Both the position numbers and the translations under genes were made by a program. Of a DNA stretch of 34,814 nt, positions 8,435-31,731 are shown piece after piece (the first letter of the stretch is position 1; the number at the start of each line of letters is the position of its first letter). Source of the DNA: an uncultured virus (IMG/VR IMGVR_UViG_3300030524_000003) (Duplodnaviria > Heunggongvirae > Uroviricota > Caudoviricetes); IMG/VR virus record IMGVR_UViG_3300030524_000003; one strand, given 5' to 3'. The notes beneath the pieces are model-generated. The model saw nothing but the letters and a program-made list of their open reading frames with translations. It was not told where the DNA came from and did no database searches.

Positions 8435-10561
8435 TTACCAGTCGTCACTCTGATCGCTCGTTCCGCGACCAACTCCAGCCATCGCCGATTTGTACGAATT
8501 TACCACGTCGGGAAGGATTCTCGTGGAATCCATTCCATGCCTAGAAAATAGTTCGTGCTCGGCTCCATTCCCGTCAAAGATCGGGCTGTAAAGCGTGTTC
8601 GCTTTGCACACCAGAATCGGCATCACCATCCACCCAGCCAGTCCCTTCATCGCCTTCTCGGCATCTTCCTTCTTGATGTACTGGCCGCGCTGGCGTCCTA
8701 TATCGTCGTAGACCCCGTACTGGTTGATGTCGTTCTTGCTGTGCCGTGGCTGGCCCGGCGTCGCCGCAGCCTTGATGTGCTTATTCGTCTCGCGAGCGCA
8801 GTAGAGTCCAATCATCGACCCCATGACCAGGTCGTCGTTATTATCCTGGCCTTCGAACCGCATGCCTCCGTTCAACGAACTGAAGTCGATGCACTCATCG
8901 AGCAGGTCTTGGTCGTGGATAATGACCGACTCCTCAAGTAGAGCCTCGTTCAGCGTGCCGATGATCTGGTCGCGAGTCTTGATCGTCGTCAGCCAGTGGA
9001 GGTGGACTCCCATCGTGCTCCCAACGCGATCATGATGCTGCGGCCGGTAAAGTGTGGGGTAGTCCATGTCCTTCAGCTTGTCGCCAACACTGATGCCTGG
9101 CCCCTGATATTCGCAGGCAATCTCAGCCCCGTTGTAGTAAAACCCAAGCGCGGCTACCGCCCGAGCATAGACTCCCGGTGGTGCGTGGCCCAACCATGAA
9201 GCCGCGAGCTCGTCCGGCTCCATTCCGATACCGACGCGCCATACGGCGCACGCGCTGAAGTCGCCATCTTTGACGCCGAGCGCCGAGTCAACGCCGAGAT
9301 AGTACGTTCGCCCCTGCTCGGGCTGCAGCCAGATGTGCAGTGGATCGGACGCATTCGCTCCTTTACGCTTCGACAAAACTTCGTCGTCGCCAACCTCGCG
9401 AGTGATGATGTTCGATGTGAAGTTGTCGGCCTGCAGCGTGACGTGTCCGACCCAAAGCGGCCGGCACGAAAACTTCATCTCCTGCTCTTCGAGCTTGTCC
9501 CGATCAAACGCACACATGCCTGACGCCTGGAACGACTCGGCCGGCGTCAGCGGGTACGACTCTTTGAAGCCTGACACGCCCTGCCCGTACTTGGAGGCCT
9601 TCATGCCAGCACGGCGGAACTTCCAGAAGCCCAGAGGGATATCGAACTGCTCTTCGCGCTTGATGCGCGCCGTGAACGCCATCTCCTCTTCGGTTAGGGT
9701 GAAAATCTTCTTCACCGGCATGTAGTACTTTTTCACTTTGTAAACCGGTATGAAGAGAGCGCGCCAGCCGGTGTCACCTTCAACCGAGCCCTGCCACCAG
9801 TCGTACATCAAACCATTGCGGCCGTAGCCCGTGGACTCCATCACGCGGAATCCATCGCGAGCGCTTCGGGCAGACGGGAGAATATCGGCGTGGAACACGT
9901 CGGCGGATGGCCAACGAGAGGCCTCACTGCAATGCAGGTTTCGAATCGTGCGCCCAATGGCGACGCCCGACATCTGCTGCGCGTGCGCGGTCTGGAAGGT
10001 TGATCCCAAGCCGGGCCTGACAAGACGCTCCATTTCGTCCTTGCGTTGGAATTCGATGGCGTCGCCCTTAGTTTCGTACTGGCACTCTGGCCGCAGCCAC
10101 CACGGCAGAGATTTGTAAGCGTTGACCACCATCGCGTGAATCATTGCCGACGTCTTCGGGTTCTGCGCGATCGCCATCGTGTAGCTGTGGGCAAGGAAGA
10201 TGGTGCGGTGGAACATCGCCGCTGACGTCCACACGGTCAGGCCTGTCTGCCGCGGCTTCAAAACGATCAGATTGCAGAATCCGTTCTCGTCGAACTCTTC
10301 CTCGATGGCTTCGTACACCATCTCCTGATGGTCCCACCATGGGTAGAGAGTTCGCCACTGGCCTTGCTCAGTCCGGATGCAGTAGTAGTTTTCTAGAAAG
10401 TAGCGGCGGTCAAAACACTTGTCAGTCTCAGTGTCGACGAAGTCCATCTCTTCATCGCTGAGCATACTCAACGCAGTGTTGACATCGTTGCCGGCGCGGA
10501 TAAACACCTCGTCGAGCACGTCGATGGCATCGTTGAGGGTATTATCCTTCCTGGATATCAT
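8435..10561 (-). CDS. terL: Terminase large subunit
   Basis: Walker A-like LKPRQTGLT, Walker B LHCSEA, coupling motif MESTG, and RNase H-like nuclease motifs YLGVDSALG..DFS and NDDLVMG. Likely start MISRKD at 10561 (ORF extends to 10594). Confidence 0.93.
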   Translation of the reverse strand: MISRKDNTLNDAIDVLDEVFIRAGNDVNTALSMLSDEEMDFVDTETDKCFDRRYFLENYYCIRTEQGQWRTLYPWWDHQEMVYEAIEEEFDENGFCNLIVLKPRQTGLTVWTSAAMFHRTIFLAHSYTMAIAQNPKTSAMIHAMVVNAYKSLPWWLRPECQYETKGDAIEFQRKDEMERLVRPGLGSTFQTAHAQQMSGVAIGRTIRNLHCSEASRWPSADVFHADILPSARSARDGFRVMESTGYGRNGLMYDWWQGSVEGDTGWRALFIPVYKVKKYYMPVKKIFTLTEEEMAFTARIKREEQFDIPLGFWKFRRAGMKASKYGQGVSGFKESYPLTPAESFQASGMCAFDRDKLEEQEMKFSCRPLWVGHVTLQADNFTSNIITREVGDDEVLSKRKGANASDPLHIWLQPEQGRTYYLGVDSALGVKDGDFSACAVWRVGIGMEPDELAASWLGHAPPGVYARAVAALGFYYNGAEIACEYQGPGISVGDKLKDMDYPTLYRPQHHDRVGSTMGVHLHWLTTIKTRDQIIGTLNEALLEESVIIHDQDLLDECIDFSSLNGGMRFEGQDNNDDLVMGSMIGLYCARETNKHIKAAATPGQPRHSKNDINQYGVYDDIGRQRGQYIKKEDAEKAMKGLAGWMVMPILVCKANTLYSPIFDGNGAEHELFSRHGMDSTRILPDVVNSYKSAMAGVGRGTSDQSDDW

Positions 10562-11252
10562 CGTCGTCGCCCTCTTCGTCGTCTTCGATGTCAATCCCGA
10601 TGTCGGATAACTCTTCCTCCAGCGTTTGCTCCTCGATCACCTCTGCATCGACCACTTCGCCTTCGTCAATTTTTCTCTGCCGGTTACGGCGGACGCGATC
10701 TTCGAAGCTCAACCCTTGTGGGCGGCCACCCGTCGTACCAGACCCCGGATTGTTTACCTGGGTGTTGCTGGTGATAGCGATCCCGCCACCCTTGGGGCGG
10801 ATCGAATCCATCAGGTTTTTCATGGTGTCGATGGTTTTGAGTTGCGTGGTGGTGTCAGGGCGGGTGACGCGGCGGTACTTATCTTTCCCCTTCTTGTCCT
10901 TGCCGATGTGGATATTTTCGCTGATCTTCGCTCGAAGCCCGGTCTTGAGTACCGTACCCACTTCGGTCATGCTTTTGAGGATGACCTGGTTGACGGCGAA
11001 GTCTACCTCCTCGTTCGACACCTCGGCTCGAGCCGAATCGTAGCGGTCGAGGCTATCCTGCACTTGCACGAGCGACCCGCCGGTCTTGATGGCAATCTCG
11101 TCAGGCGAGAACCCTTTACGCTTGAGGTACGCCCTAAACTTGTCAGTCTGAGAGAGCGCCTTCGAGCCCCTCGACCTCTTCGCGGAAGTCGATGAGGTCC
11201 TGCTTGGCAGTTGGGGTTTGGTCGTAGATAGTTCCAGCGTTGTCTGGGGCAT
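10542..11252 (-). CDS. Putative terminase small subunit
   Basis: Directly upstream of TerL, with an HTH-like segment (GFSPDEIAIKTGGSLVQVQDSL), helical core and acidic tail. Likely start MPQTT at 11252. Confidence 0.6.
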   Translation of the reverse strand: MPQTTLELSTTKPQLPSRTSSTSAKRSRGSKALSQTDKFRAYLKRKGFSPDEIAIKTGGSLVQVQDSLDRYDSARAEVSNEEVDFAVNQVILKSMTEVGTVLKTGLRAKISENIHIGKDKKGKDKYRRVTRPDTTTQLKTIDTMKNLMDSIRPKGGGIAITSNTQVNNPGSGTTGGRPQGLSFEDRVRRNRQRKIDEGEVVDAEVIEEQTLEEELSDIGIDIEDDEEGDDDDIQEG

Positions 11253-11811
11253 ACTCTTCGGCTCCGAGTCCCGACGGCGACTCTTCCCTTTCATTATGCA
11301 ACTGAAGCAGCTTACTGAGTATCGACGTGATCTTCTCGATACGGATGCAAGCGCTGATTGCACGGGCTGACGCCGTCATCAGCGCCTCGCCGTTGATCGA
11401 GTTGGTGATCGCCTTCATCTCGTCGTGGTGAGTCGTCAGGATGGCCCTGGCTTCCTTCAGGAAGGCTTCATTTGCGGCGCGCTGCTCCGCTCGGGCGCTG
11501 GTCGCGGCGTTCTTATGGTTTTCGAGTACGACGTTGATTGCCTTGATAAATTCAGCGTTGGCGGTGGCGCTCTCGTTGAGCATCTCCGTCGTTTCGTCTT
11601 TCCACGTGTACGCGGTGCCTTCGAAGTAGTCGCAGGTTGTACCCAGCTTCTCTCGGTGAACTTCGAGGATGCCGGCCAGTTTGGCGTTGTTCGCCTCGAA
11701 AACGGCTTTTGCCTTCCACATGAAAAAGCCCAAGATCACCATCCCGGCGAATACGACCACCAAGACCACACCGGCAAGCAGGGCCAACGCAACCATTCCA
11801 GCGCTTTGCAT
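11143..11811 (-). CDS. Membrane-anchored coiled-coil protein, first gene of the packaging operon
   Basis: N-terminal hydrophobic helix followed by a long amphipathic helical region. The ATG at 11811 lies 6 nt after a -10 box. Confidence 0.75.
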   Translation of the reverse strand: MQSAGMVALALLAGVVLVVVFAGMVILGFFMWKAKAVFEANNAKLAGILEVHREKLGTTCDYFEGTAYTWKDETTEMLNESATANAEFIKAINVVLENHKNAATSARAEQRAANEAFLKEARAILTTHHDEMKAITNSINGEALMTASARAISACIRIEKITSILSKLLQLHNEREESPSGLGAEEYAPDNAGTIYDQTPTAKQDLIDFREEVEGLEGALSD

Positions 11812-11817
11812 TGGGCA

Positions 11818-11846
11818 AGCGTAAACCGATTCATGCAAGCATGCAA
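11818..11846 (-). promoter_or_regulatory. Sigma70-type promoter of the packaging/structural operon (TTGCAT-N17-TACGCT), overlapped by the operator TCATGC-AA-GCATGC
   Basis: Correct 17-nt spacing, immediately upstream of a leaderless ATG. The operator motif recurs three more times in intergenic DNA. Confidence 0.6.
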
Positions 11847-11859
11847 GCTGAAAGTAGAA

Positions 11860-11941
11860 CGGCTGACGGTCTCAACCCTAGCTCGACCGTGGAAGGAGGA
11901 TAGGGGAGACGCGCCAGCCGGAAAAAGGTTCGGCCGCGAAC
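11860..11941 (-). ncRNA. Candidate small antisense RNA: long hairpin with loop complementary to the neighbouring + strand RNA
   Basis: Nested inverted repeats CGGCTG/CAGCCG, GTCTC/GAGAC and CCCTA/TAGGG around GACCGTGGAA, plus a second hairpin GGTTCG/CGAACC. The transcribed strand is inferred. Confidence 0.35.
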
Positions 11942-11974
11942 CCACATGTAGTTTCTCATGTTTTACGATTTAAC

Positions 11975-12003
11975 TTGCATTATTTTTTTACCTCATTTAC
12001 TTT
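11975..12003 (+). promoter_or_regulatory. Sigma70-type promoter TTGCAT-N17-TACTTT
   Basis: Exact 17-nt AT-rich spacer; predicted start about 12010. Confidence 0.6.
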
Positions 12004-12010
12004 CGTTTTC

Positions 12011-12306
12011 ACGCTTGACCGTGGAAAGCCAAGCAAAAAACAATTCCCATGACCCGACCATTTGGTCATGCATATCTAGCTGTCGAGCCAAAGCGCATTG
12101 TTGCGTCAGGGTCGATCGGGGTTAAGGGTTGGGCTCTATACGCCCGGAGATGCCTCGTTAGGTACGGTTGGCTGAGGCAGAACATTCGATCAGTCGCTTA
12201 GTCAAAGTGATCCTGTATAGGCTTCATACCTCGTCGTGGCTCCTTTATGCCGAGTATGGAGAAAAGACCGGGCCTTCCTTTTTGGGGTTGGCGTCCGGTT
12301 TTTCTT
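12011..12306 (+). ncRNA. Candidate ~295-nt structured RNA or long leader upstream of RNase H
   Basis: Promoter upstream, serial hairpins (GCTTG/CAAGC, CATGACC/GGTCATG, TGCCTC/GAGGCA, CATAC-CTCG/CGAG-TATG), a four-G-run motif at 12109-12133 and a terminal terminator-like hairpin. Confidence 0.45.
12261..12306 (+). terminator. Putative intrinsic terminator/attenuator hairpin
   Basis: GAAAAGACCGG...CCGGTTTTTC stem followed by a T-rich tract. Confidence 0.45.
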
Positions 12307-12394
12307 CGCCCTGAGCGTTCACCATTGTCCGATTAGTTTTAGAAGCAACAACTTAAAGCAAAAGCAAATACAACTACCAGAAAGGATATATCCA

Positions 12395-12829
12395 ATGCTA
12401 ATAGCAAGATTCGATGGAGGATGCTGGCCTAATCCGGGTGGACATGCATCGTGCGCATGTTTGATTACTCGCGGAGAAGAAGAGATTTTTCGGTGCAGTA
12501 AGTACCTTGGACACGGTTCCAAAATGACCAACAACGTTGCCGAGTTCGAAGGAATCAAGATGATCCTTGGATGGTATCTGGCAACAAAATCGACCGACGC
12601 GATGACGATCGTTGGCGACTCGCAGGTTGTCATCTGGAGGATGCTAGGGAAGTACCGCAAGCCCGTGGCTGGGATTTGCGCAGAATCAGCCAACGACTGC
12701 TTGCAGATGAAATCTTGGCTTCCCTACGGGAAAGTAAATTTCGAATGGCAACCACGGCTGAGCAACGACGAGTGCGACGCCATGTGTGACCTGGAAATTT
12801 CTGAAGCAACCCTCGCAACTCGGCAGTAA
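12395..12829 (+). CDS. rnhA: Ribonuclease HI family protein
   Basis: FDGGCWPNPG, TNNVAEFEG, IVGDSQVV and WQPRLSNDECDAM supply the DEDD catalytic residues. RBS AAAGGA before the ATG at 12395. Confidence 0.9.
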   Translation: MLIARFDGGCWPNPGGHASCACLITRGEEEIFRCSKYLGHGSKMTNNVAEFEGIKMILGWYLATKSTDAMTIVGDSQVVIWRMLGKYRKPVAGICAESANDCLQMKSWLPYGKVNFEWQPRLSNDECDAMCDLEISEATLATRQ

Positions 12830-12851
12830 ACTCAAACAACCGGAGGAGTAC

Positions 12852-13481
12852 ATGGTCAACCTGAACGCAATCCAAAGTATCGTGATGATGGCTCGAAGCC
12901 AGGGCAATATGGTCGCCGAGATCCACTTCTGCAAGCAGACGCTCGACGAGGTGAAGCAGGCCATCATCGACGAAGGTAAGGCTAAGGTCGAAGACCGGCG
13001 ATCCCTGCTCGATCGCATGCGCAACCCGCGACCGGAGCCCACGGTCGAAAACACTGTGTTCACCATCCTGGGAGTCCCTCTCGTCGAGAACGAGATGCTT
13101 CCCTGCGATCAGGTTGCGGTGCGCACAAACAACCAGAATCCGAACTGGCTGCGCGACATCATGAAGGCGCGTGGCGACGGTGCAGCCGCACAGAAGAGCG
13201 AGTTCGAGCAGATTGCGGAGACGCCGTGGTTTAAGGCCGACAAGGTCGATAAGGGCGACCCAGACGCGCCCATCACCGCCTCCATGCTGTCGGGGTCGCG
13301 CACTGGACGGCCAACCCCCAGCGACCTGTTGATGCACGCTATCGACAATGTCGAGAAGTATGAAGATGTCATCATCATCCCCATCACTAAGGGTGGCGAC
13401 GTCCTCATGTCCGCGACAATCCCACAAATCGCCGCGGAAGGTTACATACGCAAAGTGCTGGTGCGGCTTATGGAAGGCTGA
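12852..13481 (+). CDS. Hypothetical protein
   Basis: Strong RBS GGAGGAG before MVNLNAIQ; co-oriented with RNase H. Confidence 0.8.
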   Translation: MVNLNAIQSIVMMARSQGNMVAEIHFCKQTLDEVKQAIIDEGKAKVEDRRSLLDRMRNPRPEPTVENTVFTILGVPLVENEMLPCDQVAVRTNNQNPNWLRDIMKARGDGAAAQKSEFEQIAETPWFKADKVDKGDPDAPITASMLSGSRTGRPTPSDLLMHAIDNVEKYEDVIIIPITKGGDVLMSATIPQIAAEGYIRKVLVRLMEG

Positions 13482-13887
13482 GGGTGGAGACGGCGAGGGT
13501 AGTCGCCGTCAGTTCGTCGTACATCCCCTTGGTCCGCTCACAGCAGCAGTCAAAGGTATTGCACGACCCGCACGGTGGCTCTACCGCTTTGACGAACCCG
13601 CTGACCCGGTCGAAATCTTCGGTTTGATCGTACAGTGAAGTGATGGCCACTAGATAATGTTCCTCGTTCGATTCCAACCATGGAAAGTAGTTGAGTAGAG
13701 CATCGACGCGATCTGTCGAGTCAATCGTTTCGCCATACACTCCCGGCTGGCTAGGATTGCGGTCCGTCCTTTTTGGCTCAGGCATCCCTAAAGCATTGGC
13801 GGCCGATCCGAGGTAGCAACCCATCCAGTCACCAACACACATTGTTGTGATCGTTCGCCCCATGTCGGCGGCCTCGCTAAGTTTCAT
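13468..13887 (-). CDS. Hypothetical phage protein with Cys-rich C-terminus
   Basis: Start MKLSEAA coupled to the upstream stop (TGATG); CGSC...CCC motif. Confidence 0.75.
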   Translation of the reverse strand: MKLSEAADMGRTITTMCVGDWMGCYLGSAANALGMPEPKRTDRNPSQPGVYGETIDSTDRVDALLNYFPWLESNEEHYLVAITSLYDQTEDFDRVSGFVKAVEPPCGSCNTFDCCCERTKGMYDELTATTLAVSTLSLP

Positions 13888-26574: not shown

Positions 26575-26949
26575 ATGAATGACCTTACACTTGGACCTTG
26601 GCAGTTCGACAGCAATACCAGAACCATCTACGGCACACCCCGATACGGCACGATCGAGCAGACTGCGGCCAACGCTGAATTTCAAGGAGCCGACTGCAAT
26701 TCGCTGAATGAGGTTTGCAAGGTTCACCGCGTTAGCGTCTCCGAGTTTTGGCTAGGCCATACGCACTACCCAATGAAGGTTGATGTTGTTGAGTTCTTTC
26801 GACGACGATCTCAGGCCAACGCCAACCTCATCGTGGCCGCGCCGGATCTACTGCAAGCGCTAAAAGATTTTGTTTCTATCACCGAGGGCGATGGGGCCGT
26901 GAAAATGGCTGCCATTACTGCAATCAAAAAGGCGGAAGGAACCCTATGA
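26575..26949 (+). CDS. Conserved phage protein (T-x-GPW...ANAxLIxAAPDLL family)
   Basis: Characteristic terminal motifs. Confidence 0.8.
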   Translation: MNDLTLGPWQFDSNTRTIYGTPRYGTIEQTAANAEFQGADCNSLNEVCKVHRVSVSEFWLGHTHYPMKVDVVEFFRRRSQANANLIVAAPDLLQALKDFVSITEGDGAVKMAAITAIKKAEGTL

Positions 26950-27566
26950 GGCGTTTAGCTGTCGCCGTTATTGGAGTTAGCACCCTGCTGGCGGCCGAAG
27001 TCGCGCACAAGGGAATCAAGCCCGGCGACTGCCTGACATGGGCTCAGCACGCTATGGCGCCACCGACCAAGGCGACCATTGCCGGCTGGAATGCATGGCT
27101 GGTCGAGAAGCAAAAGACCCATCCCGGTTACACGCCGAAGACTCACCCAAGGGTGAAGTGGGACTGGGAGCCGATCGCATGCCCCGCTGAAACCGCGCCG
27201 CCTACGCCACTGGTTGAATTGATTTCTGACTTCCCTATAAGCCAGTTCTCGCGCAACGTTACGTTTATCCCGTTCGCCAGCCCTTTGCTGCCAATCGACA
27301 TCGTGCCGGTTCAGCCGGGATTCCTCGAAACCGAGGACTCACCCGAAATTCCCGGCATAGAAACCGACCAGGTCGGTCAAAACGAGGACTACCCGCTCGA
27401 AACGGGTGATTTTGGAGAGCTAGGGGGTGTAGGAGGCTTTGGGGGGTACGGAGGTACCACCGGAGGCGGATCGACGCCGCCACCAGCCTCCAGCGTTCCC
27501 GAACCGGCATCCCTGCTGCTCCTTGGAACCGGTCTTTTAACTTTGGCAGCATGGAGGAGACGATGA
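26946..27566 (+). CDS. PEP-CTERM sorting-domain protein
   Basis: N-terminal signal-like peptide, Gly/Pro linker, and C-terminal VPEPASLLLLGTGLLTLAAWRRR (PEP motif, TM helix, basic tail). Confidence 0.9.
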   Translation: MRRLAVAVIGVSTLLAAEVAHKGIKPGDCLTWAQHAMAPPTKATIAGWNAWLVEKQKTHPGYTPKTHPRVKWDWEPIACPAETAPPTPLVELISDFPISQFSRNVTFIPFASPLLPIDIVPVQPGFLETEDSPEIPGIETDQVGQNEDYPLETGDFGELGGVGGFGGYGGTTGGGSTPPPASSVPEPASLLLLGTGLLTLAAWRRR

Positions 27567-30491: not shown

Positions 30492-30923
30492 ATGACAGAG
30501 CAATTCGCAGAGAGATTCGCAACACTAAAGGCCGCAGCAGAATCCGGCAAACGCGCTGAGACAGACTACGGTCAGAGTTTCATCCGCCGCAACTTCGATA
30601 TAGCAAAGTTTGAAGACGCGGCCACTCCTGACGCAATCTTGGAACTTTTGTCCGCATACGAGGAGTTAGAAGCTGCAAGTAAGTGGATACCAGCCAAAGA
30701 GTTTGAGCGTGGATGGAGGACTGCAACAAGGAGTGCCGCCGCAATCGACCCTTGGAAAGAACATCTTGCAGGCAATCCAATTGCCGCCAAGCTAACAAAT
30801 CCGGGGCAGTGCGTTGAAGTAAAAAACAAGCTCATTCTTTCGCAAGCGTGTCCTGCCCCTACCGTAGTAGAAGAAGATGCCCAAGAAATAACTAAGGAGA
30901 TATTCAAACATGGACTTACTTAG
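30492..30923 (+). CDS. Ead/Ea22-like phage protein
   Basis: LKAAAE...[16 protein letters not shown] motif. Confidence 0.6.
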
Positions 30924-31731
30924 CATGACTGGAAGTGTATTGTTCGCCGCCGCAGTAGGGACCATAAAAGATTTGGTCGTCGCTGCAGTAAAAGCCGGTG
31001 CCAACCTGCGCGGTGCCAACCTGAGCGGTGCCTACCTGTGCGGTGCCAACCTGAGCGGTGCCTACCTGTGCGGTGCCAACCTGCGCGGTGCCAACCTGAG
31101 CGGTGCCAACCTGAGCGGTGCCAACCTGAGCGGTGCCTACCTGAGCGGTGCCCACCTGAGCAATGCCAACCTGAGCGGTGCCAACCTGAGCGGTGCCTAC
31201 CTGAGCGGTGCCCACCTGAGCAATGCCAACCTGAGCAATGCCAACCTGAGCGGTGCCAACCTGAGCGGTGCCTACCTGAGCAATGCCAACCTGAGCAATG
31301 CCAACCTGAGCGGTGCCAACCTGTGCGGTGCCAACCTGAGCGGTGCCTACCTGAGCGGTGCCTACCTGTGCGGTGCCTACCTGTGCGGTGCCAAAGATGC
31401 TGAATGGGCACTATCGCTAATTCAGTTCATTCCCGAAGAGGGGAACTTTATCGGTTGGAAGAAATGCAAAAGCGGTGTGATTGTAAAGTTGCAGATTCCT
31501 GATGGAGCTAAACGAAGCCACGCTACAGGACGTAAATGCAGAGCAGAAAAAGTTCTGGTGCTTGAGGTGTTCAATGGCGAATTTGGTCTGTCTGGCCACG
31601 ACGGAAAAACTGAGTATCACAAAGGTACCGAGGTACTACCTGATTCCTTTGACGACAACCGATGGGAGGAGTGCAGCAATGGCATCCATTTCTTTCTGAC
31701 TCGGATCGAAGCGGAAAAATATCAACTGTAG
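30910..31731 (+). CDS. Pentapeptide-repeat protein with conserved C-terminal phage domain (DUF5758-like)
   Basis: About 26 A(N/Y/H)L(S/C/R)(G/N) repeats; C-terminal FIGWKK...IVKLQIP..AKRS..GRKCRA...ECSNGIHFF. Confidence 0.92.
30997..31392 (+). repeat. 15-bp tandem repeat, about 26 copies (consensus GGTGCCAACCTGAGC)
   Basis: Directly visible; encodes the pentapeptide repeats. Confidence 0.95.

Follow-up and report, generated by a model that had tools for sequence, protein, structure and literature searches.

A conserved structured RNA at the head of an RNase HI cassette in a peat phage lineage

What lies in the long intergenic DNA that separates the minus-strand packaging operon of an uncultured tailed phage from a small plus-strand cassette opening with an RNase HI gene? 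The phage is known from the IMG/VR record IMGVR_UViG_3300030524_000003, a stretch of 34,814 nucleotides (nt) that we call the window. A preliminary description had placed a promoter, serial hairpins and an A-rich tract in front of the RNase HI gene, and had suggested that they form a ColE1-like RNA-primed origin or an RNA-controlled switch, with a kissing-loop antisense RNA as regulator. Comparison with diverged copies shows that the region holds an RNA core under purifying selection at the nucleotide level, which keeps a multi-helix structure through compensatory changes. This core is not protein-coding and falls outside every Rfam family. The earlier observation was largely accurate: it was right about a structured RNA tied to RNase H, while the ColE1-like origin and the kissing loop are unsupported. 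Our preferred reading is a tentative one, with a probability of about 45%: the RNA may be a new structured 5' leader that acts in cis on the expression of the RNase HI cassette.

A conserved RNA core and its helices

One relative of the region came from a search that used aligned RNase H relatives as the query. It is a 1187-nt metagenome contig (L082) in which the 295 nt upstream of the RNase H gene align to positions 12085-12380 of the window. Identical runs of 17, 16, 14 and 13 nt are separated by segments that differ in length and in sequence. Identity reaches 68.6% in the RNA core, against 59.7% in the RNase H coding sequence, where 57 of 138 third codon positions match, and 52% in the next gene. 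The variable segments of the RNA differ in length by 11, 1 and 13 nt, which excludes a reading frame in this region; its conservation is not that of a protein-coding open reading frame, an explanation that would have competed with a structured RNA. Similarity sets in at about 12085-12093 (the coordinates of all features are collected in Table 1).

A third, diverged copy lies on a 72-kb IMG/VR contig (L165) and was found with a two-block pattern taken from the alignment of the window and L082; the match extends beyond the letters specified in the pattern. The copies come from very different backgrounds, since the window lineage consists of peat phages with 53-62% G+C, and L165 has AT-rich flanks and a Bacteroidota-style integrase. 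The RNA is flanked there by a 428-aa tyrosine-recombinase-like gene (the integrase) and a LexA/CI-like repressor gene (L165 485-2000 and 3416-4183), and the integrase side carries an att-like fragment of about 45 nt from the 3' end of a tRNA or tmRNA (partial Rfam tmRNA match, E 0.0056). Judging from these neighbours, this copy is part of the lysogeny region of a temperate element whose flanks are AT-rich. Two further, low-depth contigs of 151 nt, from metagenome run X24, match only 12078-12133 and 12079-12123 of the window, show 8 and 4 differences there, and are unlike the window to either side; beyond the match, one of them runs on into sequence similar to the next conserved block. They look like more distant variants of the RNA.

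A covariance model (R1) made from the window sequence and the derived structure assigns 118 bits to L082 (E 2e-38) and 25.5 bits to L165 (E about 1e-6, a rough value), and has no other match with E <0.3 in 170 sources (about 1.0 Mb), a result with which two nhmmer profiles agree. The intergenic region, compared by blastn and nhmmer with all fetched loci, returned only L082, and blastn found no relative of the RNA among GenBank phages and PLSDB plasmids. Locus searches with the proteins around the region (the 231-aa, 209-aa, RNase H and large terminase, TerL, proteins) gave self copies only, bar a TerL relative (L164) that ends before the region. Rfam 15 yielded no match at the gathering score over the whole window, only four chance-level matches with E up to 10 between 11700 and 12500, none of them to RNAI, and no relevant match for the loci L165 and L166.

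We rejected several familiar identities. ARAGORN and Rfam give no match that would make it a tRNA, tmRNA, ribozyme or riboswitch. We also rejected the idea that an attachment site carries a piece of some common host RNA gene, as the two-block pattern occurs in none of 185,579 species genomes bar one chance match. A match in Enterococcus and four further pattern matches were judged to be chance, as they lie in apparent coding sequence and lack the flanking stem, and another pattern scan of public collections returned no match at all.

The secondary structure was derived from the window and L082, and the alignment was then extended over the three copies under guidance of the model. Standard pairs fill 95.7% of the 140 paired cells, against 39-46% when the partners are slid by 1-3 columns, although this paired fraction is inflated by fitting the alignment to a structure derived from two of its three rows. 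Both sides have changed in 20 of the 58 pairs (1-5 in the slid controls), which is the compensatory signature of a conserved structured RNA, here in three sequences and in an alignment fitted to the model. None of 500 shuffles attained any of the five pairing measures. The three copies contain 11, 7 and 4 G-U cells that would be A-C mismatches on the opposite strand, which points to the plus strand as the folded one.

The predicted RNA opens with a small hairpin (Ha), continues into a multi-branch junction closed by a long-range helix (P1), and ends in a single-stranded tail. Ha and P1 are invariant between the window and L082 and are compensated in L165, while the long irregular arm shows both-side changes already between the window and L082 (4 of 7 pairs in S1 and 4 of 6 in S4). 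S1 and S2 have no counterpart in L165. The hairpin Hb, loop and stem, is identical or compensated in all three copies, and arm S6 keeps its lower stem in all three with a variable apex. The strictly conserved elements are the loop of Hb, TCCTTTAT, and the 3' tail, TCACCATTGTCCGAT.

S6 is the stem that had been taken for a terminator-like end of the RNA. The terminator scan does not list it, and 12263-12303 does not present the conserved combination of a G+C-rich stem and a U run behind it: the window has TTTTTCTT after the stem, and L082 carries CTTCGTCC after the matching stem, with no U run. Because the U run occurs only in the window, the stem lies inside P1, and about 30 conserved nt follow it, S6 is on this comparative evidence an arm of the RNA and not its end.

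The RNA and the RNase HI cassette

The gene behind the RNA is an intact RNase HI gene, as the preliminary description had recognized, and its product is of the archaeal type. Its frame is open, and the catalytic residues of type 1 RNase H (DEDD: D7, E50, D75 and D128) are invariant in all 35 aligned relatives; the RNase H fold is supported by alignment to PDB structures. Among PDB entries, the protein comes closest to the RNase HI of Sulfolobus tokodaii (E 7e-8) and to the RNase H domain of Rv2228c; 3aly and 2ehg match with E 7e-8 and 8e-8, and the alignment to them covers residues 1-131. Its closest relatives among protein clusters (P0001 and P0003-P0010) are 58-71% identical. The protein also matches NCBIfam NF041175 (Thermoprotei RNase HI, E 5.9e-17, score 61.8 against a threshold of 140), PHROG 531 (E 1.5e-7) and the Pfam families RNase_H (16.5 bits, cut-off 25.8) and RVT_3 (14.2 bits, cut-off 21.6). 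Since it stays below the curated thresholds of Pfam and NCBIfam, it is a divergent member of its family. The 35 aligned relatives back the full 144-aa frame. In the protein cluster P0002 (15 contigs), which is 100% identical to the RNase H of the window, the product is recorded as 101 aa starting at Met44, a form devoid of the first catalytic Asp.

The RNase HI of L082 is 54% identical to that of the window. Window and L082 share one arrangement, in which the RNA is followed first by a short A-rich spacer, next by RNase HI and last by the 209-aa gene; the RNA stands directly upstream of the two genes and in their direction. The structured RNA on the same strand as an intact RNase HI gene, as first described, is borne out by covariation, by the strand of the G-U pairs and by the catalytic residues, and the A-rich tract is present as well. 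The second gene of the cassette encodes a 209-aa protein with 27% identity to the frame that follows RNase H in L082 (E 9e-11). Its family is small (28 representatives at E <=0.001), and the protein has no match in Pfam, PHROG, PADLOC or NCBIfam, nor an Atlas match above 0.77. Its AlphaFold model is confident in parts (predicted local distance difference test score, pLDDT, 82.4; predicted template modelling score, pTM, 0.52) and finds no PDB fold at E <=0.001.

Where might transcription begin? The promoter described at first as clean, TTGCAT-N17-TACTTT, agrees with the sigma-70 consensus at 6 of 12 positions, and a promoter scan of 11000-13500 does not list it. The scan reports TTGACC-N18-AACAAT at 12015-12044 instead (9 of 12 positions), with 2 sites found against 1.1 expected. 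The label "clean" must therefore be dropped, whereas the position gains from comparison. The wider motif TTGC-N19/20-TACTTT occurs once in the 34.8-kb window (0.07 expected) and once in L165 (2166-2195; 0.02 expected), where it is upstream of the homologous RNA and on the same strand. This recurrence beside a distant homologue makes a start near 12010 plausible, and with it an RNA in which a variable 5' part, from about 12010, precedes the conserved core. Between the RNA and the RNase H gene, the scan lists no terminator in the window, and none is predicted in L082.

These elements fit together in our preferred reading. The RNA would be transcribed from TTGCAT-N17-TACTTT, starting at about 12010, and would make up the 5' portion of the mRNA for RNase HI; its folded leader would act in cis by setting the expression of the cassette, through translation or stability. 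The likeliest route would be that the loop TCCTTTAT and the CATTG-containing tail mask the initiation region AAAGGA...ATG. Both the window and L082 have a Shine-Dalgarno-like sequence before RNase H (AAAGGA or AAGGA). The loop complements the AAAGGA that directly precedes the start of RNase H, a match to be expected of any CU-rich loop and one with no supporting statistic. CATTG, which occurs in the tail and again in Ha, complements the CAATG found at the start codon, and RNAalifold pairs Ha with the start region in the window and in L082. Alternatively, the folded leader might be a substrate of the nuclease encoded downstream, which would produce feedback as in the leaders of rne, rnc and pnp. 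RNase HI of the S. tokodaii type is reported to cut double-stranded RNA besides RNA-DNA hybrids.

Several observations weigh against a leader acting in cis. One would expect an autoregulatory leader to be linked to its gene in every case, and only two of the three members, those of the window and L082, are linked to the RNase gene. Behind the L165 copy come about 240 bp of very AT-rich DNA in which that strand carries no gene, and RNase H of the window's family is missing from the whole 72-kb record. Because L165 has the RNA and no RNase H, the RNA can exist in the absence of its proposed target gene, and this arrangement favours an RNA working on its own. Another set of points concerns the evidence itself, including the unspecific loop complementarity and the inflated paired fraction mentioned above. 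There are only three distinct members of the RNA. In L165, 26 of the 58 pairs fall in gaps and the middle domain is built differently. The serial hairpins of the preliminary description are supported by the comparison across sequences and not by the fold of the window taken by itself: z is -1.68 for 12005-12330 on the plus strand, where 6 of 100 shuffles fold as well (opposite strand, z -1.22), and a second value for the window is -1.36, neither better than shuffles, against -3.18 for L082 and -3.56 for L165. Finally, none of the 24 peat-metagenome runs listed with the phage is recorded as RNA.

Structured autoregulatory leaders are known for other ribonuclease genes, namely the 5' untranslated region of rne (RNase E) and the leaders of rnc (RNase III) and pnp (PNPase). 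The likeness is in a long, conserved, folded 5' region located directly before a ribonuclease gene and co-transcribed with it, the latter being predicted here. The differences are the phage setting, the RNase HI class, the lack of any sequence relation and the existence of a member, in L165, without a ribonuclease gene; cleavage by the encoded enzyme is only proposed for the phage RNA. To our knowledge, no structured leader has been known for RNase HI, and our literature searches turned up no described RNase HI-associated RNA or leader. If our reading is correct, the phage RNA would represent a new family that Rfam 15 lacks. Its three members, in elements that differ greatly in base composition, would share a loop and a tail under strict conservation, and in the phage it would head an RNase HI cassette. 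A catalogue of candidate structured RNAs in viruses and phages contains DNAVirus_1112 and DNAVirus_5578, each followed within 25 bp by an RNase H gene (PMC10690425). From the core of the phage RNA to the start codon there are 59 nt in the window and 43 nt in L082; this comparison is one of listed gene distances only, and prior cataloguing of the RNA is possible (PMC10690425).

The RNA might instead be an independent, trans-acting non-coding RNA gene that is a mere neighbour of RNase H, and whose loop and tail bind a conserved RNA or protein of the host or the phage. The L165 copy fits such a gene: its neighbours are an integrase and an att-like tRNA/tmRNA fragment, no gene follows it, and its record lacks RNase H. 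The same can be said of TCCTTTAT and TCACCATTGTCCGAT, which are identical across the peat phage lineage and the AT-rich-flanked L165, as if their partner were widely conserved. Yet no predicted terminator separates the RNA from RNase H in the window or in L082, and both keep the spacing and the order of RNA and gene. No target was identified for such an RNA. We tend to doubt this alternative on balance.

A second noncoding region and the question of an origin

In 34 of 80 more distant RNase H loci, at least 250 nt upstream are free of reading frames of at least 90 aa, which is a crude measure. A conserved noncoding region of about 500 nt stands upstream of RNase HI in 12 fetched loci, in the direction of the gene, and reaches its start codon. 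The RNase HI proteins of these loci are 36-40% identical to that of the window. Indels of 15-16, 24, 28 and about 70 nt leave the region with no consistent reading frame, and Rfam has no match for it. The helices proposed by RNAalifold contain compensatory changes in 16 of 95 pairs; one hairpin has stem changes at four positions in L109 and L111 and keeps ACCUC in its loop, the complement of a GAGGU that precedes the start. L100 has SSB, Shedu and AbiJ genes as neighbours of the region, and L151 a PRTRC cassette.

This region is unrelated to the RNA of the window, and model R1 gives no match to it. At least two unrelated putative RNA families are linked to RNase HI, one in the peat phage lineage and one in the 12 loci, two of which have defence-island-like or conjugative-element-like neighbours. 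That two unrelated long noncoding regions precede the same enzyme family raises the credibility of a functional connection of RNase H with RNA, without specifying which link applies. It also suggests a general, unexplored association between RNase HI and large RNAs in mobile elements. A bolder generalization would be that the small archaeal-type RNase HI genes of mobile elements have dedicated large structured RNAs and form with them a self-contained RNA-enzyme module, either a start of RNA-primed replication with its own processing nuclease or a ribonucleoprotein whose RNA directs or gates RNase H. We consider this unlikely.

The RNA-primed origin at the core of the first proposal would work through a transcript that hybridises persistently with the A-rich or AT-rich DNA downstream, its primer being trimmed by the RNase H of the phage or of the host. 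ColE1-type primers are indeed processed by RNase H, and RNA-based origins exist in mycobacteriophages that persist as extrachromosomal prophages (PMC7157519). The phage locus resembles a ColE1-type replicon in its promoter-like motif, its structured RNA of several hundred nt, the A-rich stretch after it and the involvement of RNase H. That stretch follows all three copies of the RNA, in L165 as the very AT-rich DNA described above, and the lack of RNase H in L165 is compatible with an origin that uses the enzyme of the host. The occurrence of the second RNase H-linked region in mobile-element contexts, with SSB and a PRTRC cassette, points the same way. So does the lack of conventional replication genes: in line with the preliminary description, no initiator, helicase or primase was recognized in 42 + 33 reading frames of the window, nor in 15 frames of the additional 21 kb that a near-identical virus record of 52 kb (G001) provides. 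But G001 is estimated to be only about 55% complete, such that a conventional replication module may lie beyond the known sequence, and many phage replication proteins escape PHROG and Pfam.

There are also differences from ColE1. In the phage, RNase H is encoded alongside the RNA. The RNA has no similarity to RNAI, RNAII or any family of Rfam 15, no promoter-like site for an overlapping countertranscript is found on the minus strand between 11000 and 13500, and there are no iterons, only a single repeat pair. The proposed antisense site lies outside the plus-strand transcript and is not demonstrably conserved, and the RNA is predicted to continue into a protein-coding gene. The resemblance to the mycobacteriophage origins is limited to a phage-borne noncoding RNA region that is proposed to replace an initiator protein; those origins stand beside parABS in actinobacteriophages, and the main text of the study makes no mention of RNase H (PMC7157519). 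Origin activity of the phage RNA is a proposal made from its sequence, and we regard it as distinctly unlikely.

Selection could also act on DNA rather than on RNA. The region would then hold protein-binding or packaging sites in double-stranded DNA, or hairpins of single-stranded DNA like the ssi or Frpo-type elements of plasmids. It is located at the head of the terminase operon, and its L165 copy is beside an att-like site. Compensatory changes alone do not separate RNA from single-stranded DNA, and a pair of 14-mers 132 bp apart, described below, would suit a DNA-binding regulator. Still, double-stranded sites need no compensatory changes in stems, the many G-U (in DNA, G-T) pairs are on one strand only, and the location changes from packaging genes in the window to an integrase in L165. 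There is also no sign of a single-stranded stage in this tailed phage. We regard a DNA-level element as very improbable.

The repeat pair, the minus strand and the genome setting

Is the most eye-catching feature of the region also its conserved one? The 10-mer GACCGTGGAA is present twice, exactly where the preliminary description had placed it, and the pair extends to GCTYGACCGTGGAA with 13 of 14 letters matching. Among 300 dinucleotide shuffles of the intergenic region, 36 contain an exact repeat of at least 10 letters (p about 0.12) and 9 a repeat of at least 14 letters with one mismatch (p about 0.03), which makes this repeat only marginal. The intergenic region has no iterons or repeat family besides this pair. 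No relative that covers 11839-12080, and could thereby show the two copies changing together, was found. The two variant contigs of run X24 cease to match the window upstream of about 12078, and as a result the plus-strand copy is not kept in them. By these comparisons the 10-mer pair is outside the conserved RNA and is not the conserved feature of the region; it is more likely to be a pair of protein-binding sites or a product of chance.

On the minus strand, the first copy is indeed predicted to form the apical loop that had been described, within a long imperfect hairpin. The fold of 11840-11975 has -47.3 kcal/mol and z -3.66 on this strand, against z -2.18 on the plus strand. In the predicted minus-strand RNA, 8 of the 10 letters are unpaired with a probability of at least 0.98. 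The copy in the plus-strand RNA is mostly paired, with unpaired probabilities of 0.12-0.40 at 7 of the 10 letters. A shorter, terminator-like hairpin with T5, unlisted by the scan, sits on the minus strand between the plus-strand promoter region and the long hairpin. There is no minus-strand gene immediately upstream of it, and the packaging operon is downstream. It might end minus-strand transcripts that run antisense through the RNase H cassette.

In the kissing-loop scheme, a divergent minus-strand RNA would show UUCCACGGUC at the apex of the long hairpin and pair with GACCGUGGAA at the 5' end of the plus-strand RNA. The open loop, the stability of the hairpin relative to shuffles and the rarity of a repeat of this length (9 of 300 shuffles) agree with it, as does a duplex energy of -24.9 kcal/mol. 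Between the divergent transcripts as a whole, 260 of 300 shuffles reach a duplex energy at least as low, a measure that is uninformative at such length. But a divergent transcript displaying the loop is not evident, because the terminator-like hairpin precedes the loop and no promoter-like site is found on the minus strand between 11000 and 13500. The plus-strand copy overlaps the TTGACC hexamer of the only scan-listed promoter there, and would go untranscribed if that promoter were used. Considering also that the exact 10-mer recurs in 36 of 300 shuffles, that its plus-strand copy is largely sequestered, that both X24 variants lack similarity there and that the conserved core begins only downstream, we find kissing-loop control hardly credible.

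Table 1. Positions of features in the window and of the second noncoding region in other loci
Feature	Positions	Strand	Details
TerL (large terminase)	8435-10594	-	Head of terminase operon adjoins the intergenic region
Intergenic region	11839-12394		556 nt, between minus-strand packaging operon and plus-strand cassette
Long imperfect hairpin (inverted repeat)	11860-11920	-	Apex holds repeat copy 1
Repeat copy 1, GCTCGACCGTGGAA	11881-11894	.	14-mer; strand unassigned
Exact 10-mer GACCGTGGAA	11885-11894 and 12017-12026		Read in sequence
Terminator-like hairpin GGTTCG-CGGC-CGAACC + T5	11922-11942 (hairpin 11942-11927)	-	Read in sequence, seen in fold
Promoter-like motif TTGCAT-N17-TACTTT	11975-12003	+	Read in sequence; implied start about 12010
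Repeat copy 2, GCTTGACCGTGGAA	12013-12026	.	Strand unassigned; overlaps TTGACC hexamer of scan-listed promoter
Conserved structured RNA core	12093-12335	+	243 nt; 5' hairpin, multi-branch junction closed by long-range helix, single-stranded 3' tail
5' hairpin Ha	12094-12105	+	4 bp; 3 of 4 pairs changed on both sides in L165, all cells paired
Closing helix P1	12116-12122 with 12308-12314	+	7 pairs, both sides changed in 3 and one side in 2; 95.2% of cells paired
Long irregular arm S1-S4	12136-12220	+	S1 12136-42/12214-20; S2 12146-48/12211-13; S3 12158-62/12197-201; S4 12170-75/12190-95
Arm S5 and hairpin Hb	12224-12259	+	Hb stem 12237-40/12249-52
Hb loop TCCTTTAT	12241-12248	+	Invariant 8 nt, CU-rich
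Arm S6 ("terminator-like" stem)	12263-12303	+	Followed by TTTTTCTT in the window; local fold -19.6 kcal/mol
Single-stranded 3' tail TCACCATTGTCCGAT	12319-12333	+	Identical in window, L082 and L165
A-rich spacer	12336-12394	+	Shine-Dalgarno-like AAAGGA; 55.9% identity to L082
RNase HI gene	12395 (ATG)-12829	+	144 aa, archaeal (Sulfolobus tokodaii) type, intact
209-aa protein gene	12852-13481	+	Syntenic in L082
Second noncoding region (about 500 nt)	L100 3495-4010; L124 689-1213; L143 1164-1700; L150 1219-1729
Second noncoding region (about 500 nt)	L151 2926-3434; L152 3502-4010; L122 54-560; L120 472-915
Second noncoding region (about 500 nt)	L109 3536-4010; L111 115-611; L123 3541-4010; L146 1-192

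The window is the genome of a tailed phage whose portal, major head protein and large terminase are all encoded on the minus strand. To the left of the intergenic region are the minus-strand genes of a 231-aa membrane-like protein, a 273-aa protein and TerL; to the right is the two-gene plus-strand cassette, past which the genes return to the minus strand and include that of a small helix-turn-helix protein. G001 is 100% identical to window positions 11700-12900 in the compared stretch. The same phage is present in 24 peat-metagenome runs, and contigs from three of four peat runs carry it with no differences in the studied stretch, run X21 having yielded none.

Two other parts of the window deserve mention. 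A 143-aa frame at 15550-15981 matches only the C-terminal part (57-153 of 153) of an IS1595/ISXO2-like transposase domain, and appears to be the remnant of a truncated transposase within the phage. Farther along, at 26946-27566 and 30910-31731, the phage encodes a frame ending in a PEP-CTERM sorting motif (E 2.8e-7) and a pentapeptide-repeat protein with a DUF5758 domain.

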